From NCBI GenBank assembly GCA_965219495.1, contig OZ244777.1:4150419-4214418 (forward strand): DNA of 64,000 nucleotides, read 5' to 3'. A program made the position numbers and the translations under genes. Positions within the stretch are counted from its first letter, which is position 1; each line of letters opens with the position of its first letter. This DNA is from Rhodobacterales bacterium (lineage in GTDB: Bacteria > Pseudomonadota > Alphaproteobacteria > Rhodobacterales > CAZPXZ01). Of the stretch, positions 29,898-42,957 are shown piece after piece. The notes below the pieces were generated by a model that was not told where the DNA came from, did not search any database, and worked only from the letters and a program-made list of their open reading frames with translations.

Positions 29898-30061
29898 CTT
29901 CGCGGTACGTTTTCCGGTGTTCGTTGTGAGCGCTCAGTTTGATTGCTGGATGTATTTTCACGCTGTCTGATGGAATGAGGGCTGTTGGGGCCGATTTTGC
30001 GCGGTTTGGACGCCGGCGGTCTTGGGTTGCGGACGTTGTCCGTTGGATAGTTTGATTTTTC

Positions 30062-31892
30062 GTAACTGCCCAGCACTCAGTCTCGCGCGTACGTGAAGGC
30101 TGCGCAAGGCTTGCGTTTGAAATTATACATGCTTGGGGCGGGACCGGCGTGGCGGCAGCGGGCAGGGCGTATGGAGCGGTTTAGCATTGGATTTTTCCGA
30201 TCAGTTGGTTCGGCGATGTCATCAAGGTTTCGATGATGTTCCAGCCCTGCTTTCTGGCGGTGGTGATGGCGCTGCGCAGGGTGGCGAAGTCTTGGGTGCC
30301 TTTTGGGGAGCGGAACCCGCCGGAGATTTTCTGGCGCAATTTCCCCATTCGACCATCGCGTTCGGCTTCATTATTGGTAAACGGAACGTCGGCGTCGGTG
30401 AGGAAACGCAAGGTCTCGGTTTTGTAGTCCTGGAGCCGGAGGGCGAGATTGTGTCCGGCGCGGCGTTTCTTTCGCCCGCGTTTGCCGGGCTCCGGCGGCG
30501 CGAGCGGTGGCTGCGCCTCATGAAAGGCGAGCGCCTCGGCGAGGATCCAATCATAGGTTCGCCCGATCCGGTCGAGCAGCGTTTCGGGGGGAGGTCTTGC
30601 CATTGTTCTGGCGAGATGAACGACCCGATTGGCGCGCGACAGGAGCCGGTGCATATGCCGGGCCCAGTCCTCTTTTTCGATGTCGATCAGGGCTTGAAGT
30701 TCGCGCAGGTGATGGGCGTTGCAGAGGGCGTGTGAAACGCCGCTGATCTTGAAACAGGGCTTCCAATGATCGTGAACGACACAACCGGAGAACCCCGCCA
30801 GCAAGTCGCCGCGCTTTTCGTGGACGCGAAACAAGGTCAGCCATGGCGTGCAGGCAATGTGGAGCCACTGCGTGCGCCCGCCAACCCGGAAGCCGGTCTC
30901 GTCGAGATGCTTCACCGGCGCCTTGCGGACGATCAGCTCCCGCACATGGTTGACGAAACCCTGGAACTGCTCGGCCATCCGGCGGCTCATCGCCGCCAGC
31001 GTCGCGGCGCACACGGGCGCGTTGAACAGGTCGGCCATCAGTTGCGACAAACGATCCTCGGGCAGGAAATGCGCATGGCTCAGATAGGCCGCCACCGCCG
31101 CCATGCGCGGACCATACTGCACCGGCGCCGTCACGCCTGCGGGAAACGCCGCCCGTGTCGTCGCGCCGCAATGACCGCAAACGCAACGGTGAGCGCGGTG
31201 CTCCGTGGCCTCGAGGGGGCGCGGCTCCGGCAGGTCGAAGACCTGTCTTGCGACATGGCTTTCATCCCCGTCCGCAGCCGACAGCGGCGCGCCGCAGCCC
31301 GCACAGTGCGACGGATGATGATCCTCGACATGGTCCGGCCTGTCGGTCCGGCGCAAGGTCGAGCCCGCGTGCCCGGGCTGCCCGCCGCTCGGCCTGCCCG
31401 ATTTGCCGCGCTGGCTCCTTGTCCGGGGCTCCGCCCGCGGCTTCTGCAGCCCGTCACTCGAAGGAGGCTTGCTGCTGTTCCGGCTGTTCCGGCCAAGCTG
31501 GCGCTCCAGCTCTTCAAGACGTTGCCGCAGGGTCGCGTTCTCGGCTTGCAAACCAGCGAGCTGTTCGCCTTGCGCCGCGAGTTGCTCGTCCTTTTGTTCG
31601 AGTTGCTCCCGCAAAGCCTCAATCTGTTTCGTTCCGCCATCATCATGCGGCGCCCCTTGCGCCGGGTGGGTCGGCCCTGAAAAAGCCGGCAAGAACCGTC
31701 GGGTCTGAAAGCGAATCGCCATGCCGCTATAAATAGCGCAGGTTGAATTCTGTTACCAGTCCCTGGTGTTACCAGTAATTTTTCGAGAAAGAACTGTTCT
31801 CGCCCGTGTAACCGTCACAACCGGGCAGCATCGACCTTGCGGCAGTGGCGGGCAATGCACTCCGTGGTGCACGCACTTACCTGGGCAGTTAC
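30062..31892 (-). mobile_element. IS66-family element, single-ORF type (1831 bp)
   Basis: IR GTAACTGCCCAG at both ends; 8-bp duplication GATTTTTC at 30054-61 and 31893-900. Confidence 0.93.
30181..31722 (-). CDS. IS66 transposase
   Basis: 513 aa; NSRNSSKPPSSD, GGQPGH.G, HLDETG, VHDHW, LCNAHHLREL, FTNNEAERD. Confidence 0.95.
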   Translation of the reverse strand: MAIRFQTRRFLPAFSGPTHPAQGAPHDDGGTKQIEALREQLEQKDEQLAAQGEQLAGLQAENATLRQRLEELERQLGRNSRNSSKPPSSDGLQKPRAEPRTRSQRGKSGRPSGGQPGHAGSTLRRTDRPDHVEDHHPSHCAGCGAPLSAADGDESHVARQVFDLPEPRPLEATEHRAHRCVCGHCGATTRAAFPAGVTAPVQYGPRMAAVAAYLSHAHFLPEDRLSQLMADLFNAPVCAATLAAMSRRMAEQFQGFVNHVRELIVRKAPVKHLDETGFRVGGRTQWLHIACTPWLTLFRVHEKRGDLLAGFSGCVVHDHWKPCFKISGVSHALCNAHHLRELQALIDIEKEDWARHMHRLLSRANRVVHLARTMARPPPETLLDRIGRTYDWILAEALAFHEAQPPLAPPEPGKRGRKKRRAGHNLALRLQDYKTETLRFLTDADVPFTNNEAERDGRMGKLRQKISGGFRSPKGTQDFATLRSAITTARKQGWNIIETLMTSPNQLIGKIQC

Positions 31893-31899
31893 GATTTTT

Positions 31900-32835
31900 C
31901 TACTTGGAAAGGAAGGCGCCGAGGGTTTCGGATTTGAGCAGCATTTCGCTCCAGTCTGCGGCGCCTTTGGGCCTGAGGCGGCGGATTCTGGGGTCGCTTT
32001 CGGCGAGATGGCGGGCTGCGCGGTCTCCGGGGATGTCGGCGTCGTAGCCACAGAGGATTTGGCTGGGGGTCCATTGGTTCATCCAGGTGGGGATGCGGCG
32101 TGCGAGTCCGGCGGTGGATGCGACGGTGACGGGCTGTTTGGCGAGCTGCCTTGCAGCGAGGGCGTCAACGGCGCTTTCGGCGATCAGGACGGTTTCGGGG
32201 GGGATCGGTCCGGCAGCGATCCAGAATGCGCCGAGGCTTTTGCGGGAACCTGGCGCCATTGTCTTGCGTCCGCCGGGCCGGGGTTCGGCGATTTCGGCGC
32301 CGTTCGGGCGTCCTTCGGCGTCGGCGCAGACGAACACGGCGCGGCCGTACTGGTCGGCGTGCAGCCGCTTGCGCCTGTGGCACTGTTCGAGGAGCGCGGG
32401 ATCGATGCCGCGTTCAGCGGCGAGGGCGTCGCGGAGACGGGGCCATTGCGCGGGGTCGGGGCCGGGAATCCGGATGCGGGGTTGCGGGGGATTGTCGGGT
32501 GCGACGGTTTCAGCCTGCATTCCGGCGAGCCATTCGAGCGCTTCGGGGAAGCTTCGTCCGGTCGCATGGATGACGAAGTCGAGGGCGCCTCCGCCGCCCT
32601 GTCCTGCGATGTGATCGAAGAATTTGGATCCGTTGATGCTGACGATGGAGCCATTGCGGGTCCATTTCGCGCGGTCGCGCGGGTGGGGTCGGAAGCCGAG
32701 GGATTTTGCGACCGTTTGGAGCGGGACGGTCCTTGCCCGGGCGGCTGCTGTGGGCGGTGTTTCCGGTTTCCGTTTCCCTGCGGTCCCGGCGGACCGGGGG
32801 AAACGGAACCGCTCAGGATGCGATCCGGCAGCCAT
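31900..32835 (-). CDS. Toprim/primase-like protein (DUF3991-toprim type)
   Basis: GGGGALDFV.H; VLIAESAVDAL; LCGYDADIPG; KGAADWSE; start uncertain. Confidence 0.75.
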   Translation of the reverse strand: MAAGSHPERFRFPRSAGTAGKRKPETPPTAAARARTVPLQTVAKSLGFRPHPRDRAKWTRNGSIVSINGSKFFDHIAGQGGGGALDFVIHATGRSFPEALEWLAGMQAETVAPDNPPQPRIRIPGPDPAQWPRLRDALAAERGIDPALLEQCHRRKRLHADQYGRAVFVCADAEGRPNGAEIAEPRPGGRKTMAPGSRKSLGAFWIAAGPIPPETVLIAESAVDALAARQLAKQPVTVASTAGLARRIPTWMNQWTPSQILCGYDADIPGDRAARHLAESDPRIRRLRPKGAADWSEMLLKSETLGAFLSK

Positions 32836-33778
32836 TCGGGGTGCTTTCGACGCGGCCCTCGTCGACCAGTTCCTTGAGCGCCTGGACCACGGCCTCGGCC
32901 CGGATGCCGGCCCGGGAGCGCAGCTCCCTTTGCGGCATCGGCGCCTTCGCCTTTGCGAGGACGGCCTCGATGCGCTGGCGGGGGGTGTCGGCGGGGGGTT
33001 GTTCGGCGTCTGCGTCGTCGACATGGAGCGCGAGTTCCGGGGGACGGGCCCTGAGTTCGAGGGCCAGTTCGGGGCCGCTGGGCAGCCCCCGGTGCTCGGC
33101 GTTGAGCAGGATGCGGCGGCTTCCGCGGCGCTGGAGGTAGAGCAGGGAGTCGGCCCAGGCGTGAAGCTCGGTGGAGCCGCGCAGCGCCTGTCCTCCGCGC
33201 CGGTGGCCGTCCTTGCGGGCGTGGTGGACCAGCAGCACGGCGCATCCGAAGCGGACCTGGAGTTCGCGCAGCGATCCGAGCAGGGGGGCGATCTCGCCGG
33301 CCTGGTTCTCGTCGACCGCGTGCAGCCGGACCAGCGGGTCGAGGGCGAGCAGCCGGGGCCGGACGCGTTCGACGGTTTCGGCCAGCCGGACCCGGTCGGC
33401 GGCGACATCGAGGCGCAGCCGGGGGGTGTCGATGATCTCGATGTCGAGGCTGTCCAGGGCGCGGCCTGCGGCGCGGGCGATGCCGCCGAGCCGTTCGCGG
33501 AGAATGTGCCGGGCGTCCTCGGCGGCGAACAGCAGCGCGGTTCCGGGGGCGGCGACGGCGAACCGCCGCAGGCAGCGGGCGCCGGTGGCGACGGCGACGG
33601 CGATGTCGAGCGCCAGGAAGGACTTGCAGCACTTCGGCTCGCCGCCGATGATGCCCACCGCCTGGTCGCCCCAGAGCTGCTCGACCAGCCACTTCTCCGG
33701 CTCCGGCCTGGCCTCCAGGTCGGCCGGGCGGAAGGTGGGGAAGCCGCGCCGCCTGGCGCCATTGCCGGGCGGACTCAT
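32813..33778 (-). CDS. RecA/RepA-like AAA_25 helicase with C-terminal wHTH
   Basis: WLVEQLW; GGEPKCCKS; LALDPL; LVHHARK; LRGSTELHAWAD; ATG overlaps the ExeA stop. Confidence 0.85.
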   Translation of the reverse strand: MSPPGNGARRRGFPTFRPADLEARPEPEKWLVEQLWGDQAVGIIGGEPKCCKSFLALDIAVAVATGARCLRRFAVAAPGTALLFAAEDARHILRERLGGIARAAGRALDSLDIEIIDTPRLRLDVAADRVRLAETVERVRPRLLALDPLVRLHAVDENQAGEIAPLLGSLRELQVRFGCAVLLVHHARKDGHRRGGQALRGSTELHAWADSLLYLQRRGSRRILLNAEHRGLPSGPELALELRARPPELALHVDDADAEQPPADTPRQRIEAVLAKAKAPMPQRELRSRAGIRAEAVVQALKELVDEGRVESTPNGCRIAS

Positions 33779-34599
33779 CGCCGCGCCCGGGCGGTGTCGG
33801 GATAGGCCTTGAAGTAGAGCGCCATGTCGATCCGGTCCTCTTCGCGTTCGGCGGCGGACCTGAGCAAGGCGTCGCCCATGATGGTGAGGGAACGCAGGTT
33901 GCCGCCGCAGTGGGCGCACAGGGTGTGCTTCAGTTCGGCGTCCATCAGGCCGGGGTTGCCGGCCTGCTCCAGCATGTGGTCGAGGCTGGCCTCGAGGTCG
34001 GCCGGCTCGGCGAAGCCGAGGTTGAGCCGCAGGCGGACGCGGGACAGCAGCGGCAGCAGGTCGGGCCGGCGCATGCGCGCCAGCAGTTGGGTGTCGCCGG
34101 CCAGGATGACGGCGAGGATGCTGCGCGAATCGAACTCGGTGGAGGACAGCAGCCGCAACTCGCCCAGCACTTCCGGGGCTGCCGCCTGGGCCTCGTCGAT
34201 CAGCAGCACGGGGCGCAAACGGGTGCCGTCGAGATGCGCCGCCCAACTCTCGCGGAGGCCCTTGAAGCCGGACCACAGGTTGCCGGCCAGCATGCCGACG
34301 CCGAACAGTTCCGCCATCTCCCGGTAGAAGTTCGAGAGGCTGGCGCTGGCGTGGCTCAGGGAGGCGGTCTTGAGGTCGGCGCGCCGGGACAGCGCCTCGC
34401 CGACGATGCGCAGCGCGGCGCTCTTTCCGGTGCCGGGTTCGCCGCTCACCATCGCGAAGCCGCCATGCGCCAGCAGGTGGTTCTCGACCTGCCAGCGGAA
34501 GCTGGCGATCTGCGGCGTCTCGCGCAGGGCCGAGGTCGGCGCATCCGGCAGGAACGGATTCCATTTGAGCCCGAAACGGGCGTGCAGCCTATGATCCAT
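33775..34599 (-). CDS. ExeA/TnsC-like AAA+ ATPase (transposition helper)
   Basis: 274 aa; FGLKWNPF; GEPGTGKS; LLIDEAQ; ILAGD; GNLRSL. Confidence 0.9.
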   Translation of the reverse strand: MDHRLHARFGLKWNPFLPDAPTSALRETPQIASFRWQVENHLLAHGGFAMVSGEPGTGKSAALRIVGEALSRRADLKTASLSHASASLSNFYREMAELFGVGMLAGNLWSGFKGLRESWAAHLDGTRLRPVLLIDEAQAAAPEVLGELRLLSSTEFDSRSILAVILAGDTQLLARMRRPDLLPLLSRVRLRLNLGFAEPADLEASLDHMLEQAGNPGLMDAELKHTLCAHCGGNLRSLTIMGDALLRSAAEREEDRIDMALYFKAYPDTARARR

Positions 34600-35198
34600 C
34601 GCCGTCCTCCTCTTCGATCTCGTCGCACGGAACGTAGGGCGGCGGCAGGCCGGTGGCCGCGAACTCCTCGAGCATCCGTTTCAGCAGCGGCGCGTCGTCG
34701 CCGCCATCCGCGCGTTCTTCCGGGGCGTCCGCTGCGGGATCGATCCGCCGTCGCCGGCCGTCGGCGTTGGCCGCCAGGTCGACCGGAAGCAGCCGGCACA
34801 TCTCCGCGCCGCGCGGGTCGACGGCGGTGGCCGTCGACAGGTCCCAGCGGGCGAAACGCACCCGCAGCTTGCGCAGGCGCCGGAAGCGGGAGGGAACCTC
34901 GAAGCGGACACCCCGGAGCGACACCGTGCCGTCCGTCCGCCGCTGGGTGCGGTACTCCTGCAGGCGGAACGACGCCCGCAGGGCCTCCGGGCCGGGACAC
35001 GGGCGACCGGCATCGGGGCCCGCGAGCAACCGCTCCAGCGGCGTCGAAGCGATGCTGCGGTGGCGGCGCCGGTTATAGTCGCCCTCGGCCCACACCGAAG
35101 TGATGCGGTTCAGTTCCGACAGCGTCAGCTCCCGGCAGCCGCCGATCATCGGAAGCAACCGGCTTTCAACCAAGCCCCGGAAGGCTTCCACTTTACCG
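34589..35198 (-). pseudogene. Mu/TnsB-like DDE transposase, C-terminal piece
   Basis: NGKVEAF..., YNRRRHRSI..TPL, RTQRRTDGTVSL.GVRFEVP (Mu-transposase C-like). Confidence 0.88.
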
Positions 35199-35199
35199 T

Positions 35200-35502
35200 T
35201 TGAGTGAACAGACAAGTGCACCTGAAGGTCACGGTGCGACGACGGCTTTCACGGTCACTCACCCGTTTCATCCGCTGAACGGCCGCACCTTCGATCTCCT
35301 GGAGATCAAGCTCTGCTGGGGTGAGATGCGCGTCTACTGGCTTGACGAGGCCGGTGGTGTGCGGCGCATCCCGTTGTGCTGGACCAGTCTGGAGACGCCG
35401 GACCCCTTTGTGGCGGTGTCGGCCGGACGCTCCGCGTTCCGTGTCCTGGATCTTCTGGCGCTGAGCGACCTTGTCGCCTCGCTGCGCGGGGACGTGTCAT
35501 GA
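35200..35502 (+). CDS. DUF5372 (Y4bD-like) small protein, lacks an ATG start in the integrated state
   Basis: VTHPFHPLNG..F...WTS..PDPF...AGRS.FRV.DLL.L. Confidence 0.75.
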   Translation: MSEQTSAPEGHGATTAFTVTHPFHPLNGRTFDLLEIKLCWGEMRVYWLDEAGGVRRIPLCWTSLETPDPFVAVSAGRSAFRVLDLLALSDLVASLRGDVS

Positions 35503-35709
35503 CTGTCAAAGAGATTATGCCGCAATATGTAAGAACATTTATGCCGATGTATGGTGACGTGCCCCAGGCGATCATCGGATCGGTTGATGTCGACTGCATC
35601 GCAACTCGCTGTTGTTGGCGTATAATCCCCAATGAACAGTGCGAGAAGCTTGACGACGCCCTCCTGGTGCGGCATATATATAATGACAGTTTCGCGAAAG
35701 GAACCCCCC

Positions 35710-36165
35710 ATGCCGAAGAGCGACGACAAGACATCAAACCTCAAGAAGCATGGCGCCCTCAACCGGCATCCCGAACAGGTGCGCGACCCCCTGTTCCTCG
35801 AAGAGGCCTTCTTCGATCCATGCGACCTCGTTCAGGTCCGCTACGAGATGCTGCGGCGGGTCACGAAGGACGGGCAGCCGGTGAGCAAGAGCGCGCGCAC
35901 CTTCGGTGTCTCCCGGCCCACCTGGTACCAGGCAGCAAAAGCCTTCGAGGCCGGGGGCCTGCCGGCCCTTCTCCCCGAGAGACCGGGACCAAGACGCGCC
36001 CACAAGCTCGACGAGGCCGTGGTCAGGGCGCTCATCAAGGCGCGCTCGGCAACGCCCGCCATCACCACCGCAGAACTCGTCGCCCTGGTACGCGAACGCT
36101 TCGCTCTTTCCGTTCACCGCCGCAGCATCGAACGGGCTCTGTCCCGTGCCAAAAAAAACCTCTGA
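35710..36165 (+). CDS. HTH protein of the LSR element
   Basis: FFDPCDLVQVRYEMLR; FGVSRPTWYQ; GPRRAHKL; VHRRSIERAL. Confidence 0.85.
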   Translation: MPKSDDKTSNLKKHGALNRHPEQVRDPLFLEEAFFDPCDLVQVRYEMLRRVTKDGQPVSKSARTFGVSRPTWYQAAKAFEAGGLPALLPERPGPRRAHKLDEAVVRALIKARSATPAITTAELVALVRERFALSVHRRSIERALSRAKKNL

Positions 36166-36449
36166 AGACACCGCCGCCGTGTGTCGACCCACAACACACG
36201 ACCGGGGAATACGAACATCTGCGCCAATCCAGAGAACACGCCGACAGCATCGCCAGACACCGCGGGCTCGCCATCCTGACCGGCCACGGCATGGCAGCGT
36301 GGCTCGCCATCCTCGGCCAGGCGGCAGCACCCCCGGAACGCCGTCACGATCCCGCAATGCGCCTTTCCCGGGATCTCGAAGCCGGTCTGATCGACATCAT
36401 CGTCGCCATTGCCATGAACCAGACAAGGGAGACCCGCCATGAGCCGTGA
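36150..36449 (+). CDS. Small accessory ORF without a clear start (possible -1 frameshift fusion to the HTH protein)
   Basis: YEHLR...GLAILTGHGMAAWL; opens in the -1 frame at an A8 run. Confidence 0.55.
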   Translation, partial: QKKPLKTPPPCVDPQHTTGEYEHLRQSREHADSIARHRGLAILTGHGMAAWLAILGQAAAPPERRHDPAMRLSRDLEAGLIDIIVAIAMNQTRETRHEP

Positions 36450-38523
36450 GAACCACAAGGTGACGGAGCGTCATCTGGCCCGCAACGCCTATCTCTACAT
36501 CCGCCAGTCGACCCTGCGACAGGTGGTCGAGAACACCGAGAGCACACGGCGCCAGTACGAACTGCGCGATCGTGCCCATGCGCTCGGATGGCCGATCGAG
36601 AAGGTCATGGTCATCGACTCCGATCTCGGTCAGTCGGGTGCGGACCGGGACCGCGCCGGCTTCAAGAACCTGGTCGGCGAAGTCTCCGTGGGTCATGCCG
36701 GCATCGTCCTCGGTCTCGAGGTCTCCCGGTTGGCCCGCAACTCCAGCGACTGGCACCGGCTGCTCGAGTTCTGCGCCCTGACCGACACCTTGATCCTCGA
36801 CGAGGACGGTGTCTATGACCCCTGTGACTTCAACGACCGCCTCATCCTGGGGCTCAAGGGCCAGATGTCGGAAGCCGAGCTTCACATGCTGCGGGCGCGC
36901 CTGCAGGGCGGCATTGCCAACCGGGCGAAGCGTGGCGAACTCAAGGTGCGCCTGCCCGTCGGCCTGGTCTATGATCCGCTCGACCGGGTGGTTCTCGATC
37001 CCGATGCCCAGGTGCGCAACAGTGTTACGCTGCTGTTCGAGACCTTCATGCGCACCGGATCGGCGATGGCCACCGTCAAGGCGTTCCGCGCCACCGGACT
37101 GAAGTTCCCCCGAAGGCCGTGGAGCGGCCCGCACAAGGGCACACTGCACTGGGACGAACTGTTGCATTCGCGGGTCCTGCAGGTTCTCCACAATCCCCGC
37201 TACGCTGGCGCCTTCGTGTTCGGCCGCCAACGAAGACGGCGTCTGCCTGACGGCACGTTCGCCTACAGGCGCGGATCCCACGAAGAGGCCACCGTGCTGC
37301 TGCGCGACTGTCATCCCGGCTACATCACCTGGGAGCGCTTCGAGGCCCACCAGCAACGCCTTGCCGAGAACCGGACATCCGGCGCGGACAGCCGGCGACC
37401 GCCGCGCGAGGGACCGGCTCTCCTCCAGGGCCTCGCGCTGTGCGGCCTGTGCGGCAGCAAGATGGCGGTCAGCTATCATCTGCGCCGCAACTGTCAGGTT
37501 CCGGACTACATCTGCCAGCGTCAGACCCTCGATCACAGCCTGAAGGCGTGCCAGCGTGTGCCGGGTCGGCGCATCGATCAGGCGATCGCAGAGTTGCTTG
37601 TCGACCTCATGACACCGACGACACTGGAAGTGGCGTTGCGCGTGCAACAGGACCTCGAGGCACAACTCGAGCAGATCGATGTCTGGCGCCGCCAGCAGGT
37701 GCAGCGTGCCCGCGAAGAGGTCGATCTCGCACGCCTGCGGTTCATGAACACCCATCCCGACAATCGCATGGTCGTCGATGCCCTGGAAGCTGAATGGGAC
37801 GCGAAGCTGCGCTATCTCGACACGGTGCGCCACGACTGCGACCGGCGCCGGGACGAACAGCGCAGGCAGCTCGAGACCGGCGAACGCGAGCGCATCCTCG
37901 AGCTTGCCTGCGACTTCCCGAAACTGTGGCGCGACCCGGCAACTCCGGACCGTGAACGCAAGCGCATGATCCGGCTCCTGGTCGAGGACATCACCATCAC
38001 CGGCGGTGAAGAGATCGGACTCGACATCCGGCTGCGTGGCGGCGCCACGCGCCGGATCGCTGTCACGCCGGACCCGCCGAGATGGAAGACGATGGTCACC
38101 CCGCCCGGCGTGATCGATCGGATCGATGCATTGCTCGACGCTCACAGCGACGGCGCGATTGCCGATCTCCTCAACCAGCAGGGCTATCGGAGCGGGACTG
38201 GCCAGCTCTTCAACAAGAAACTGATCCAGGCCTTGTGCTGGCGCCGTGGTCTGAAGACCCGTTACAAGCGTCTGCGCGAACGCGGCCTGTTGACGCGCGA
38301 GGAAATGGCGCAACGCCTCGACATCCAACCACTCACGGTGGTGCTATGGCGCCGACAGGGCCTGCTCGTCGGTCATCCATGGAACGACAGGAACCAGTGT
38401 CTCTACGAGATGCCGGACCCCCCACCCGTCAGAAACACGCACAAGCTCGCCCGGATGCAAAGAGCCGCGTCGGATCACGCTCACCAGAGTGCGCAGGATC
38501 CGGCCAGGCAGGAAGAACGATGA
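36439..38523 (+). CDS. Large serine recombinase (resolvase, recombinase and Zn-ribbon domains)
   Basis: 694 aa; AYLYIRQST, DSDLGQSG, EVSRLARN, HNPRYAG, CGLCG...C...C. Confidence 0.95.
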   Translation: MSRENHKVTERHLARNAYLYIRQSTLRQVVENTESTRRQYELRDRAHALGWPIEKVMVIDSDLGQSGADRDRAGFKNLVGEVSVGHAGIVLGLEVSRLARNSSDWHRLLEFCALTDTLILDEDGVYDPCDFNDRLILGLKGQMSEAELHMLRARLQGGIANRAKRGELKVRLPVGLVYDPLDRVVLDPDAQVRNSVTLLFETFMRTGSAMATVKAFRATGLKFPRRPWSGPHKGTLHWDELLHSRVLQVLHNPRYAGAFVFGRQRRRRLPDGTFAYRRGSHEEATVLLRDCHPGYITWERFEAHQQRLAENRTSGADSRRPPREGPALLQGLALCGLCGSKMAVSYHLRRNCQVPDYICQRQTLDHSLKACQRVPGRRIDQAIAELLVDLMTPTTLEVALRVQQDLEAQLEQIDVWRRQQVQRAREEVDLARLRFMNTHPDNRMVVDALEAEWDAKLRYLDTVRHDCDRRRDEQRRQLETGERERILELACDFPKLWRDPATPDRERKRMIRLLVEDITITGGEEIGLDIRLRGGATRRIAVTPDPPRWKTMVTPPGVIDRIDALLDAHSDGAIADLLNQQGYRSGTGQLFNKKLIQALCWRRGLKTRYKRLRERGLLTREEMAQRLDIQPLTVVLWRRQGLLVGHPWNDRNQCLYEMPDPPPVRNTHKLARMQRAASDHAHQSAQDPARQEER

Positions 38524-38597
38524 CGCCTCGAGCCTGCGCATCAACGACAACGTTATCGTGTGCTGCCGAAGCCGGGCACGCGGACAAGGAGAACACG

Positions 38598-38885
38598 ATG
38601 GCCCTCAGCCCCGCAGAGAAGCAGCGCCGCTACCGTGAGCGTCTCAAGGCCGGCGCCAGACCGGTCCACTATCGATGCCCCCGGGACAGGCGCTCAAGGC
38701 CGCAACGCTGGAAGGATGCCGTGGAGATCCTGATCGCCCTGCAGGAGCACTACAGGACATGGCTCGAAGCCCTGCCGGAGAGCCTCCACGACACGACGGT
38801 CCACGCGATGCTGGAGACGATCAGCGATCTCGACCTCGAGGAACTCCGGGACGTCGAACTGCCCCGCGGATATGGACGCGACTGA
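38598..38885 (+). CDS. Small hypothetical protein
   Basis: 95 aa; AGGAG RBS; MALSPAEKQRRYRER...LPRGYGRD. Confidence 0.7.
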   Translation: MALSPAEKQRRYRERLKAGARPVHYRCPRDRRSRPQRWKDAVEILIALQEHYRTWLEALPESLHDTTVHAMLETISDLDLEELRDVELPRGYGRD

Positions 38886-39072
38886 TGACACCCGATACGG
38901 TCACGTTACCATGTACGGTTGAAATCCCGGTCGCCACCAACGCAGTTCCAACCGACGGCGGGGCGGACGCGAACCTTGAGTACAACGGCACGGGAACGGC
39001 TCTGATCAATCAAACATGTTCCCATCGAACCCATGGAGTGCAGTATGAATCACAGTCCTTCTGCTGCGGACT

Positions 39073-39933
39073 CTAGGGACGCGTCGTCACCCGCAGAATG
39101 CCGAGTTCCTCAAGCCCGTTCACCACCTCGCCGGCCGCCATCGCCGAGCCGTTGTCGACCATCAGGGACCTGGGACAAGTGCGCTTGAGAAGCGCCTGCA
39201 CAAGGCCGTGAACAAAGCTCCGGGCGCTCTCCGAGAAGTACCATTGCCCATGGCAGAGAAGCCGCGAACGGTCGTCGATGAACGTCAGCAGCACCGGCTT
39301 GATCCATTCGCCGCTGCGCCGCAGCACCCGCAGCGAGCCCGTGTGGAAATCCGCATGCCACAGGCCATGCACCCGCTCGACCTCGTAGCCGCGGGTCTCC
39401 AGCTGCGAGCGCCGCCGCAGCGCCGCCGCCTCGCCGGCAAGCATGCGCCGTCCGGGCCGCGTCCGTCGCAACCCCTCCGCCCGCATGAAGCGCAGCACCG
39501 ACGGATAGGACGGAAGCGGGCTGAACGCCGGGTCGGCGCCGGCGACCACGACCAGGTTGTCGTAATGCAGCTGCACCGTCCAGCCGGGATGCGCGGCGTA
39601 CTGGCGGCGCAGCGTCTCCGCGATCCGCGGGGTGAACGAGCGCTGGAAGCCGGCGTCGGAGCGCCGGCGCTTGCAAAGCGCCCCCACCGGATCGCTGTCC
39701 TCCGCCCGCGCCAGGTAGTACCACCGCTCGATGGTCGCCGCCGCGAACCGCACCGGCTCCGCCGTCGCGGGGTGGCGCCAGTCCCGGGACGCCAGGCGCT
39801 CGAACTCGCGCCCCAGCCCGCCGGCCGCCGGCGGCGACGCCAGAAGCGGCCCCACGATCGAGAAGCGCAGCCGCGCCCAGCCGTCCCGTCCACCGTTGCC
39901 TCCGTCCATTCCGTCCCCCTTCCTTGCAAGCAA
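39073..39933 (-). pseudogene. Mu/TnsB-like DDE transposase, N-terminal piece
   Basis: LRFSIVGPLL; HTH; WHADF; FIDDRSR; VDNGSA; ends P*SPQQ with TAG in place of Tyr. Confidence 0.88.
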
Positions 39934-39947
39934 AGTCTCCGGAGAAC

Positions 39948-40568
39948 CTATGAAACGGAACCGGCCTCATGTCGCGCGGCAACTTCTGCGCGACCCCCGC
40001 CGGCCGCCGCCAGCCCGATCGAAACGGTCCACGGCAACAGCCACCGGAGCGCCCGCAGCAACCCGCCGCGGTCCCCCGCAACGCCGAACAACGCCAGCAG
40101 CGAAGCCGGAAGCGCGTCGCCCGCCGGAGGCCGCGCCAACCCGCCCCGCCGCGAGATCCATTGCGGCGTCCGCGGGAACGCCTCGCGCCACCACCGCCGC
40201 CAACGCCGAAGCGTCCGCCGGGCGATGCCGAGCCGCATGCGCAGCTTGCGCGCCGCCGCGCCGCAACCGCCGGAAAGCGCCGAAACCACCAGAAAGCATC
40301 CGGAGGCATAAACCCGCGAGCCGAAATAGCGCACCGAGGGCGGCGTCGACCGCCGCCGGCAGCCCTCCGAACCGCAGCAGAAGCTGAACCGCGTGAAGCC
40401 CTCACCCCGGCGGAAGCCGAGGCCACGGGGCTTGCGCGCATAATCCGCAACGTGAAGCCGCCCCCCGCAGTGGCCGCAGCCCGCCTCGCGAAACGCCTCC
40501 GCGATCGACGCGTCAATCCGGGTGAAAAGCGCCCACTCACTGGCGCCGACGAGGATTCCGTGCAACAT
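39948..40568 (-). CDS. Zn-finger/HTH protein upstream of the transposase (DUF6431-like)
   Basis: CGHCGGRLH, FSFCC...CRRR.TPPSVRYFG.RVY, RRTLRRWRRWW. Confidence 0.7.
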   Translation of the reverse strand: MLHGILVGASEWALFTRIDASIAEAFREAGCGHCGGRLHVADYARKPRGLGFRRGEGFTRFSFCCGSEGCRRRSTPPSVRYFGSRVYASGCFLVVSALSGGCGAAARKLRMRLGIARRTLRRWRRWWREAFPRTPQWISRRGGLARPPAGDALPASLLALFGVAGDRGGLLRALRWLLPWTVSIGLAAAGGGRAEVAARHEAGSVS

Positions 40569-40914
40569 TGATTCGTCTCTCCTGCGACATAACAAGAGAG
40601 ACAAACCCCCCGGGGATGCTTGTGCAAGCTCCCCGGGGGAACCGATCGACATTCATGCACGGAATCTGATCGGATCCACCCGATCCGGAATCAATCTATG
40701 TGAGCACGCACATTCGTCTCCATGAAGGGAGTATGGAATCGCACGAGAAACGCGTCAACACATGCGACAACACCAGAAAAGAAATGCTTGACACCCAATG
40801 GCCCTGTATGGCCGCATGGTCGAAGACTAGGAACCCCGTAACACCTTGGCTAACATGACTAAATGGCACTGTCTGGCATCGGTCGGCTTCCTCTGGCCCA
40901 ATATTGGAACGAGT

Positions 40915-40960
<46 letters not shown>

Positions 40961-41078
40961 GATAAACCATTGAAAATAAACACGTTTCCAGGGTTTTCGC
41001 TTCTCCAATCGGTTCATGACAATTCGATTGGGAATCTATTGGGAATCACGCGGAATCAATGTTCTGCGCATCTATATA

Positions 41079-42844
41079 GTGTCTGTGCAAAAATACCGGG
41101 TTTTGAACCCGGCGCGACGTTTCCGGCCCAGGCGCCCGGCGCGGAATTCGGCCCCTGGCGCCGTGAATGAGCGGTTCGGGGCGGGTTTCGCGCGAATGTC
41201 GAGGATGCCGACAATCTTCCGCCATGAGGACGGGGCCCCGGCCAGGGCCGGGGCGCATGCCGACGGCGTTGGCTCGGCCGGCCGCAGTCAGGCGGCGCGG
41301 CGAATGCCTTGGCGTCGCTGATTCTGGATCTTGTCCCGCTCGGTTCTCTGCAGCACCAGGCCGATCCGGTGCAGATTTGCGGCAAGGATTGCGAGAGCGA
41401 CCGTTCGAGCGAAGCCATCCCTGCCGTGCGCGCGGACCCGGTCCAGGCCGCGGCATTCCAGGTTGTGGATGGCGGATTCCACCGCCGGATGCTGCCGCCG
41501 CGCCGCGACGAATTCGGGGCGCGCCTCGCGCTCCCGCGCTTTCTGCGAAAGAGTGCCCTTCGCCGGCAGCGCGTTGCAATCCAGCAGCGCGTCCAGCCGC
41601 ACCCGGTTGGACGGGCTGTGGAAGCCCCGGTCGAAGCTGCAGCCCCGCACCGACGGAAACAGGGCGAGGGTTTCCGACAGCAGCGGAACCGCCGCATCGA
41701 CGTCGTCGTCCGCCCACGAGATGCGGTGGTGCAGAACCAATTGATGCTGGTCCTCGACGATGCAGACCGGAACCCCGAGTTCGACCATGCGCCCGGCCTT
41801 GCCCTTCGCGCACCAGCGGGTATGCGGCTCGAAGATGGAGAACACCTTCTCTTCATGCGGGATCGCTTCGCCCTGCAGCAGCCGCCGGTCGACCTGGTCG
41901 ATCTGGCGAAGCGCATGATCCATAAGGTCTTGCACGGCATCGATGTCCCATGTCTCCGCCCCGGCCGCCTCGAGTTCCCGCCGCAGCCGTTCCGCCCGCG
42001 CCACCAGCGACCGGCAAAGACCCAGGTAAGCGCATACGCGGTCCGGATGCCGCCTCTGCCGCCAGCCGCCAAGCCCGAAGGCCGAAGCCAGCTGCGCGGA
42101 AACCCGGATCAGGCACCGCATCGCGTCCCACAGCAAGTTGACGTCGGTCGGATAGTGCACGTCGGTTTCCACCACAAAGGAATCGGCCCGCGCCCGCAGC
42201 GGCGCTTCCGGCTCCTGCCCGAACAGCGCGTGGCCCGCCTTCACCACCAGTGCGTTGATCTCGTTCAGAAGTTCCGGCGTCAGCAGCGAGACATTGCGCA
42301 CCAGCGTCCGGTGCTCGTACCGGCGATGGTCGTCAAGCCCCGAATGGCCGAGCATCTCCCGAACCGTCCCATGGCAATTGGCAAGATCCTGCAGACGGTC
42401 GTAGTCGCACCGGATGCCCTGCTTCAGCGTCGCCAGCACGAAGATCCGCCACAAATCCATGCCCGGGCGCCCAAGCCCCCGGTCCACGCCCGGAAGAAAA
42501 TGCGCGTCCAGCAGGTCGAAAACCTGCCGGCGCAACGCTTCGTCGCAGTACAGGTGCTGGATGCCCCGCAACACCGCCGGGATGTCATCCCGGCAGACCG
42601 GGTCAATCGCAATGTCCTCGATGGCGATTTCGCCAAGCCGAACAAACGGTTCCTGGATTGCCCTCATGCTCTCGCCCTCGTCTCTGCTCTGCCGGAACGA
42701 GCGACCCATCGCGAAGATTCCGCCCATTCGACCAATTTCGCCTGAATTTTGCCTGGAATTATACGCCTGGGACCAATCTTCGCAACCCAAAACCGACCAC
42801 AACCTGTTGATATGAAACGAATTGCGACCTTTTTGCACAGGCAC
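41079..42844 (-). mobile_element. IS with ISNCY/IS5-like transposase, flanked by TATATA
   Basis: IRs GTGTCTGTGCAAAAA / TTTTTGCACAGGCAC; TATATA at 41073-78 and 42845-50. Confidence 0.85.
41288..42667 (-). CDS. DDE transposase (ISNCY-type), 459 aa
   Basis: GRPGMDLWRIFVL, ADSFVVETDVHYPTD, KVFSIFEPHT, FDRGF, RRQHPAVESAI. Confidence 0.88.
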   Translation of the reverse strand: MRAIQEPFVRLGEIAIEDIAIDPVCRDDIPAVLRGIQHLYCDEALRRQVFDLLDAHFLPGVDRGLGRPGMDLWRIFVLATLKQGIRCDYDRLQDLANCHGTVREMLGHSGLDDHRRYEHRTLVRNVSLLTPELLNEINALVVKAGHALFGQEPEAPLRARADSFVVETDVHYPTDVNLLWDAMRCLIRVSAQLASAFGLGGWRQRRHPDRVCAYLGLCRSLVARAERLRRELEAAGAETWDIDAVQDLMDHALRQIDQVDRRLLQGEAIPHEEKVFSIFEPHTRWCAKGKAGRMVELGVPVCIVEDQHQLVLHHRISWADDDVDAAVPLLSETLALFPSVRGCSFDRGFHSPSNRVRLDALLDCNALPAKGTLSQKAREREARPEFVAARRQHPAVESAIHNLECRGLDRVRAHGRDGFARTVALAILAANLHRIGLVLQRTERDKIQNQRRQGIRRAA

Positions 42845-42850
42845 TATATA

Positions 42851-42957
42851 GTGTCCGTGCCAAAATACCGGGTTTTGAACCCGGCGCGACGTTTCCGGCC
42901 CAGGCGCCCGGCGCGGAATTCGGCCCCTGGCGCCGTGAATGAGCGGTTGGGGGCGGG
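42851..42957 (-). repeat. Isolated second copy of the IS right end (107 bp)
   Basis: Near-identical to 41079-41185. Confidence 0.9.

Follow-up and report, generated by a model that had tools for sequence, protein, structure and literature searches.

A small serine-recombinase element that appears to target the catalytic-glutamate codons of transposases of other mobile elements

The 64,000-nucleotide stretch of contig OZ244777.1 from a Rhodobacterales bacterium (assembly GCA_965219495.1, positions 4,150,419 to 4,214,418; hereafter, the window) contains a mobile element that encodes an intact large serine recombinase (LSR) and is inserted in the transposase gene of another transposon, precisely within the codons for the motif that holds the glutamate of the DDE catalytic triad (Table 1). 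The reading that we favor, with a probability of about 0.88, is that this is an integrative element of insertion sequence (IS) size, poor in cargo, with the LSR as its sole mobility enzyme and with the codons of the catalytic-Glu motif of transposases as its attachment site in the target (attB). Judging by the sequences compared here, the family to which it belongs parasitizes other mobile elements in a site-specific manner. The term “hyperparasite”, which was applied to the element in an earlier note made from the letters of the window alone, fits the data as an interpretation.

The invaded gene encodes a Mu-like transposase with an rve domain and is cut between ...RP(Y to stop)SPQQ and NGKVEAF, with the AA of the crossover forming bases 1-2 of an Asn codon located four codons ahead of the glutamate of the DD(35)E triad. 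Removal of the element from the sequence restores a protein of 486 aa that can be aligned from one end to the other with over 4,800 full-length homologs (52-57% identity, 96-100% coverage), with no gap at the junction and no residue gained or lost; the consensus of the homologs at this place is TTLPYSPYQN[AG]K.E.FW. A Pfam search of the rebuilt protein identifies rve at residues 198-300 and rve_3 at residues 293-352, the latter spanning the junction at residue 302. The second Asp (VDNG) and the Glu (GKVE) are separated by 35 residues, the spacing of the DD(35)E rve transposases, and E288 is invariant in the alignment. From established knowledge of this family, the Glu of GKVE is taken to be the catalytic one. 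Thus, the split gene, the colinear rebuilt protein and the empty site described below all bear out the claim of the earlier note that the crossover lies inside the catalytic-Glu motif P(Y)SPQQ-N-GKVE.

On the coding strand of the target, the two junctions read ...CCGCAGCAG-AA-GGACTGTGATTCATACTGCAC... and ...GTGCACTTGTCTGTTCACTCA-AA-CGGTAAAGTGGAAGCC, so that the attachment site of the element (attP) consists of two 21-nt arms that are roughly symmetric about a single shared dinucleotide. The empty site is present in assembled contigs of the public runs X2 and X4, which read RPYSPQQNGKVE and join position 35198 to 39059, with 3860 nt skipped and 2 nt ambiguous; hence, the boundaries of the element are exact, and the coordinates proposed in the earlier note, 35190-39080, bracket it. 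The filled site is found in runs X1 and X6, and run X2 has the filled site along with the empty one. In runs X2, X4 and X6, TAC (Tyr) stands in place of the TAG of the window, which indicates that the sequence of the empty-site contigs represents the intact site and that the stop codon arose later by mutation; the attB given in the earlier note, CAGCAGAACGGTAAA, is accordingly correct, given that the empty site of X2 and X4 reads TAC. The TT shared by both junctions, the 2-nt overlap at the empty site and the colinearity of the rebuilt protein with its homologs all are features of conservative integration. A DNA search of six genomes of the family with the rebuilt empty site found no intact copy. 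A likeness of the outer motif of attP to attB shifted by 5 bp was unconvincing on hand check and was dropped.

Table 1. Positions of the element, its genes and attachment-site arms, and the invaded transposon in the window
Feature	Position	Strand	Evidence or remarks
Mobile element	35199-39060		3,860 bp; genes on + strand
Crossover dinucleotide, left	35199..35200	+	TT (AA on target coding strand); the same at both junctions
Left attP arm, 21 nt	35201..35221	+	TGAGTGAACAGACAAGTGCAC
DUF5372 gene	35200..35502	+	Pfam PF17342, E=2e-24
Helix-turn-helix (HTH) protein, 177 aa	35632..36165	+	Pfam HTH_32, HTH_29, HTH_23, HTH_28
Open stretch in -1 frame between HTH and LSR genes	36166..36449	+	Frame translation
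LSR, 694 aa, intact	36439..38523	+	Resolvase 17-167, Recombinase 196-311, Zn_ribbon_recom 328-386
Open reading frame (ORF), 95 aa	38598..38885	+	ORF listing; not in ~3.3-kb relatives
Promoter-like site directed across right end	38885..38912	+	Consensus scan, ATGACA-16-TACCAT, 9/12 matches; weak evidence
Right attP arm, 21 nt	39038..39058	+	GTGCAGTATGAATCACAGTCC; holds ATG 39045-39047
Crossover dinucleotide, right	39059..39060	+	TT; same as left junction
N-terminal part of split transposase	39061..39909	-	Pfam rve; both Asp; ends ...LGILRVTTRP-TAG-SPQQ
TAG replacing conserved Tyr codon	39075-39073	-	Alignment with intact homologs
C-terminal part of split transposase	34589..35198 (35200 with core)	-	Begins NGKVEAFRG; holds catalytic Glu
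AAA_22 ATPase, partner gene of host transposon	33775..34599	-	Pfam AAA_22, E=5e-18
Host transposon	29925..40712	-	blastn of window 25000-46000 against whole genome; repeated, decayed copies elsewhere
Further IS nested in host transposon	30058-31893		blastn against whole genome

The same position is used by relatives of the element in unrelated transposases. A scan for homologs of the LSR, with one genome per species, gave 50 loci (35-71% identity over the best matched segment), for which the crossovers were placed via the conserved right and left arm motifs and the uninterrupted targets were rebuilt locus by locus. This mapping of insertion sites, proposed in the earlier note, reveals 31 independent insertions with the crossover at positions 1-2 of a K/N codon, four residues ahead of the catalytic Glu of a DDE transposase (22 sites on genome contigs, including that in the window, 3 on the plasmid pNGR234a and 6 on other plasmids; locus L072, with an ISKra4-like flank and a core other than TT, and a remnant in the window's own genome, for which the core position is not fixed, are left out of this count). 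The LSRs at these sites, which come from Proteobacteria, Actinomycetota and Acidobacteriota, are 48-59% identical to that of the window. The invaded genes encode IS21 IstA, IS3 OrfB, Mu-like, ISNCY-annotated, other rve_3-type and ISL3 transposases, which are mutually unrelated beyond the catalytic fold (Table 2). The attB logo, also suggested beforehand, consists of AA, G at +2 (17/19), GTCGAG at +8 to +13 (G11 in 19/19 and A12 in 18/19) and G at +15. The earlier note had envisaged the conserved codons of rve-type transposases as a multi-copy attB; the 31 sites uphold the multi-copy part of this proposal, but one of them is in an ISL3 transposase, so that “rve-type” is too narrow.

Table 2. 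Insertion sites of related elements (a caret marks the crossover; target types of TT-core loci confirmed with Pfam)
Locus or replicon	Target	Invaded gene or sequence
L024	PYHASG^KGKIERWF	rve + Mu-transpos_C
L049	CRPYRAKT^KGKVERLI	IS21
L026	PWP^KGKVERLI	IS21
L036	RPAD^KAQVERP	IS21
L048	GPTE^KGGVEG	IS21
L038, L062	PRDPE.^KG[ML]VER.NGYLE	IS21
L028	PGSPWE^NGYVEW	HTH_21 + rve + rve_3
L032, L035, L071	RA^NAYAERW	rve_3-type
L041, L042, L043, L045, L064, L040 (six Streptomycetaceae sites)	D^K[FAG]xVE type	Mu-like
L044, L033	DN^AMAE type	IS3
L037	^NAATEGYN	DDE_Tnp_ISL3
pNGR234a, three copies	TPQA^KGRVER, PRD^KAKVEA, PQA^KAKLEN	rve transposases: one ISNCY-annotated, two IS21 istA
S. meliloti pSymA; Mesorhizobium, Paraburkholderia, Aromatoleum plasmids		All in IS21 istA
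Burkholderia and Rhodococcus plasmids	CYD^NAPMES, SAD^NAAMES	IS3 orfB
L027, L029, L030, L065 (Arenicellales metagenome-assembled genome; 3.5-kb element, four copies)	FVTGISMYS^KVNLFSGLNN	Different paralogs of AAA-ATPase_like + PDDEXK_9 family
L051-L073 (Planctomycetota clade; ~2.8 kb, LSR ~40% identical)	R.LGI^[PA]xVxDR	Group II intron reverse transcriptase genes
L046, L066	GGCAGGCC-AA-GGCCTGCC	Palindromic repeat

Several genomes carry multiple copies of such an element, which are 98.6-100% identical to one another within a genome despite different flanks, and this is indicative of recent movement. In a Paracoccaceae metagenome-assembled genome (MAG), in Streptomyces A5-4 and in MFD06092, identical or 99% identical LSR elements reside in transposases of different families within one genome. 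A second, independent empty site, in a copy of the Mu-like transposon of the Paracoccaceae MAG that is free of the LSR element at this position, reads exactly the predicted CGCTCTATTTTACCC-TT-TCCGGATGCG after removal of an IS21 and its 5-bp duplication. This locus (L049, 3203-3222 and 8945-8955) shows three-level nesting, with an LSR element in an IS21 that itself lies in the Mu-like transposon, and 3 bp lie between the IS21 (5-bp duplication TTTCC) and the empty attB of the LSR element in the Mu-like transposase gene, which is unlikely to be a coincidence. Two further loci (L024 and L025, 2161-9812) are 7.65-kb composites of an LSR element nested in a Mu-like transposase that are 99.99% identical, occupy different sites and each lie between direct repeats of 4-5 bp; either mobilization in trans carried the disrupted transposon and its passenger to a new site, or the element invaded two identical copies on separate occasions. 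Homologs are found in 476 plasmids of the PLSDB database, 284 of them conjugative.

The proposed mechanism has the element excise as a circle, in which the attP would be a nearly symmetric site of about 44 bp, with 21-nt arms ending in GTGCA and a central TT. The circle would then reintegrate by conservative site-specific recombination, with a 2-nt crossover and without target duplication, into an attB that would be the DNA encoding [K/N]-[G/A]-x-[V/I/A]-E of DDE transposases and that is presumably recognized by the LSR itself. Since these codons are constrained in almost all transposases with the RNase H fold, the motif AA-nG...GTCGAG-nG recurs in unrelated IS families; present in many copies per genome and plasmid, it could provide a ubiquitous landing site that is harmless to the cell. 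Integration leaves the codons of both Asp residues on one side of the element and that of the Glu on the other; the invaded transposase should thereby be inactivated, as the earlier note suggested in speaking of a disarmed host element.

The arms of the attP are traceable in the relatives, in which the position of the left arm and its ...CAAxTGCAC end, as well as the right-arm motif G[TC]GCAGT[AG]TGAA, are kept. A sequence search finds no other copy of the left arm in the window or in the genome, and the copy of the right-arm motif in the window is the sole bona fide one in the genome. The arms also split a gene. In the integrated element, the DUF5372 gene lacks an ATG and a Shine-Dalgarno sequence of its own, whereas in the circular form (39038-39060 joined to 35199-35502) the right arm adds the Shine-Dalgarno sequence GGAG and extends the DUF5372 frame by an ATG and 5 codons. 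Such an attP-spanning ORF, with an ATG or GTG start, is found in 29 of the 29 elements tested, from all clades and including that in the window; in pNGR234a, the right arm has GTG at the place of the ATG. Expression of the DUF5372-HTH-LSR operon is probably tied to the excised state by the start that the joined ends form, which would drive reintegration. An AlphaFold2 model of DUF5372 (predicted local distance difference test score 80) consists of a small beta-barrel and a helix. A comparison of this model with the PDB yields no significant match, and because the best hits (KOW/Tudor/PsaE-like small barrels) all have E>0.01, no function is assigned to this protein; the search likewise singles out no candidate for the recombination directionality factor.

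Among the loci sampled, DDE transposases are the most frequent kind of target, to which that of the element in the window belongs. In the LSR tree, the Arenicellales elements, which lie in AAA-ATPase genes, are sister to the LSR of the window (98/96 support). In the planctomycete elements, which interrupt genes for group II intron reverse transcriptases (RT), the core is CC, GG or GC and corresponds to positions 1-2 of a Pro or Ala codon; CC-core and GG-core elements are oriented oppositely relative to the same RT motif. The target switches track the LSR tree and the sequences of the attP arms. The earlier note had named insertion of other copies in unrelated sequences as the finding that would count against its proposal: the 31 insertions in DDE transposases follow the rule, but the sister clades and the two copies in a palindromic repeat are inserted elsewhere.

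The best of the alternatives, although in our view an unlikely one, is that an accessory protein, either the HTH protein or DUF5372, chooses the target and leads the circle either to transposase genes or to DNA with bound transposase. Similarity of the HTH protein to the N-terminal DNA-binding region of IS481/IS630 transposases, with a below-cut-off match to positions 2-106 of the NCBIfam model transpos_IS481, is one argument for this view; all elements examined contain DUF5372, and annotations of the plasmid copies examined include an HTH gene; and the landing of the element-carrying IS21 3 bp from the empty attB of another transposase could be understood in the same way. However, the crossover is base-precise, with arms and a core that are typical of LSR sites, and the switches between targets follow the LSR and its attP arms. 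For integration, attP and attB are known to suffice for LSRs. The HTH protein, which is 48% identical to its homolog on pNGR234a, possibly originated from a gene of the sort that the element attacks.

It is still less probable that the element, which we regard as a parasite, is a reversible switch of the sigK/skin type that benefits the host transposon or the cell, with the transposase turned off until excision. Excision by LSRs is conservative and could restore the frame, and the empty site indeed reads an intact motif. Against such a role, the same element occurs in multiple copies and in unrelated transposases, intron RTs and other genes, which is the behavior of an autonomous parasite rather than that of a co-evolved regulator. 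Furthermore, the interrupted gene in the window has since gained a stop codon and the host transposon has gained another IS, so that no selection appears to keep the interrupted gene restorable.

Several observations weigh against the interpretation of the element as a parasite that reads the catalytic-Glu codons. Recombination was not directly observed, and the circle junction was not seen among the assembled contigs. The window's genome contains one intact element; a second intact element or an intact attB of the invaded transposase was not found in it, the copies of the host transposon being truncated, and accordingly, any activity in this particular strain is putative. The left half of attB is weakly conserved (CC at -9/-8), which a dimeric LSR would have to tolerate. 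Many of the loci come from MAGs, although complete plasmids and genomes agree with the K/N-codon result. Finally, insertions of close relatives are found at other targets, namely AAA-ATPase/PDDEXK_9 genes, group II intron RT genes and the palindromic repeat, which implies that the specificity depends on the lineage and is not a fixed trait of the family. The weak left half-site, the two copies located outside genes and the variable CC/GG/GC cores of some clades would also suit an LSR of low specificity similar to the clostridial transposon recombinases TnpX and TndX, with the bias toward transposase genes produced by selection for “safe havens”, but this is the least credible of the explanations: selection, although able to account for an excess of insertions in transposase genes, explains neither the same codon and phase in 31/31 transposase insertions nor the conservation of GTCGAG at +8 to +13 and of the AA core, and the DUF4368 domain is missing.

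The closest described counterpart is a repeated four-gene element of pNGR234a from Sinorhizobium fredii NGR234 (y4bA-D / y4pH-K), which we take to be the element known as NGRIS-4. A 1997 report by Perret and colleagues is said to note that all NGRIS-4 copies lie in other ISs. According to the annotation of NC_000914, the order of the genes, DUF5372 - HTH - small ORF - LSR, is the same as in the window, and tblastn shows the proteins to be 43%, 48% and 50% identical to those of the window. The pNGR234a element also has the same 21-nt arms and TT core, with all three copies located at K^[G/A][K/R][V/L]E. Thus, the window element shares with it the gene order with homologous proteins, the insertion in IS transposase genes and the attP-spanning DUF5372 frame. 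It differs in being longer by ~0.5 kb, as it is relative to the other relatives, in the additional 95-aa ORF after the LSR gene, in its third small ORF, which lacks detectable similarity, and in its victim, a Mu-like transposase with an AAA_22 partner, unlike the victims on pNGR234a.

Phage and island serine integrases (phiC31, Bxb1, A118, SPbeta) likewise combine Resolvase, Recombinase and zinc-ribbon domains, recombine attP with attB via a 2-nt crossover, interrupt conserved genes without target duplication and allow precise restoration of the site. In contrast to these, the window element is IS-sized and has no phage or conjugation cargo, one recombinase takes unrelated genes that share only a protein motif, and the victims are mobile elements. 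The Tn5053/Tn402 “res hunters” (DDE with TniQ) and IS110/IS1111 (DEDD with guide RNA; attC or repetitive extragenic palindromic sites) home to sites in mobile elements. They resemble the present element in landing on a conserved feature of other mobile DNA but use different enzymes, and their targets are recombination sites or repeats rather than active-site codons. In IS911, IS30 and IS21, circle-junction promoters are assembled when the ends join. Here, too, expression signals are formed only by joined ends, except that what is gained, across a serine-recombinase attP, is a complete translation start with Shine-Dalgarno sequence and ATG plus the initial codons of a gene. In the TnpX/TndX group (Tn4451, Tn5397) and the clade of LSRs with DUF4368, the LSR similarly serves as the transposase of a small element with a circular intermediate and many sites per genome, but the sites are short and degenerate, as opposed to a long motif tied to catalytic-site codons. 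DUF4368 is typical of this multi-targeting clade (PMC10083194); a Pfam search of the window LSR detects no match of this type (PF14287), only the three standard LSR domains (PF00239, PF07508 and PF13408), all above the cut-off, and the LSR also contains the serine motif YIRQSTLRQ.

Although the family was named long ago, the logic of its attachment sites, its breadth and the split gene appear to be undescribed in the literature searched. This search returned nothing on DUF5372, NGRIS-4 or serine recombinases that target transposase genes, nothing relevant on y4bA, y4bD and y4pH, and no description of how the pNGR234a element selects its attB or of the mechanism of its LSR; the main text of an LSR survey (Durrant et al. 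2022, PMC10083194) and the supplements available report no transposase targets. Annotation pipelines label the pieces as “recombinase family protein”, “DUF5372” and fragmentary transposases, so that the whole unit is missed.

In a broader perspective, for which we see an even chance, the DUF5372-LSR elements could form a large, essentially undescribed superfamily of hyperparasites with att sites that radiated along conserved motif codons of the enzymes of selfish elements; the two targets seen here are the glutamate motif of DDE enzymes and a conserved motif of group II intron RTs. One recombinase of such a superfamily would read a protein motif via its codons and so cross between transposase families, and the gene split across attP, with its expression confined to the excised circle, would act as a topological switch. 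Its members could be natural suppressors of IS load and drivers of rearrangement, for which the second copy of the host transposon, cut at the crossover, is a possible example. As parasites of parasites, these elements could limit IS expansion by knocking out the active-site codons of other elements, and parasitism of ISs would explain the “IS islands” known for many years from rhizobial plasmids. A serine integrase that is tunable to a degenerate site defined by a protein motif and found in nearly every bacterial genome and plasmid bears on DNA recognition by integrases and on tools for broad-host-range integration in bacteria, and the attP-split gene may represent a simple switch for expression after excision.

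The second copy of the host transposon, at genome position 1338807, is 98% identical to window positions 31893-35200 and stops exactly at the LSR crossover dinucleotide, with the junction ...GTCCACGGAGC-AA-CGGGAAAGTGGAAGCC, and continues into an unrelated phasin-promoter region; this junction is also present in runs X1 and X6. There is no LSR element or attP arm near the junction and no orphan attP arm anywhere in the genome, and the DNA to the left of the truncated copy is absent from all relatives. The 11 nt upstream of the junction share GTCC at -11 to -8 with the left halves of true attB sites. A rearrangement or deletion mediated by an LSR is one possible cause. The genome also contains a decayed relative of the element at 3233133-3234720 (DUF5372 40%, HTH 44% and the first 139 LSR residues 56% identical), the left end of which abuts ...ATEDKGKIERFFRT (...DKGKIERFF) of a different Mu-like transposase. 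Only a small number of candidate sites in the genome are unoccupied, e.g., an IS21 istA at 2909273.

Among the smaller ORFs of the element, the 95-aa one has no Pfam or NCBIfam match, and NCBIfam gives no match for DUF5372 or the small ORFs. At the end of the HTH gene (window 36140-36449), a run of eight A residues closes the gene and the -1 frame is open as far as the start of the LSR gene. At the corresponding place, an ORF of 88-95 aa is annotated in the pNGR234a, Burkholderia (H1) and Rhodococcus (H6) plasmid copies; comparison of the -1-frame stretch with the small ORF of pNGR234a detects no similarity.

The stretch is present in runs X1-X11, which come from several studies and are labeled with four different organisms, suggesting that the bacterium lives in association with various hosts or kinds of sample. 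ISs are very numerous in its genome: the one nested in the host transposon and another to its right (41073-42957) each have dozens of copies that are 94-98% identical, and many truncated left ends of the host transposon are found, all of which stop at window position 40712.

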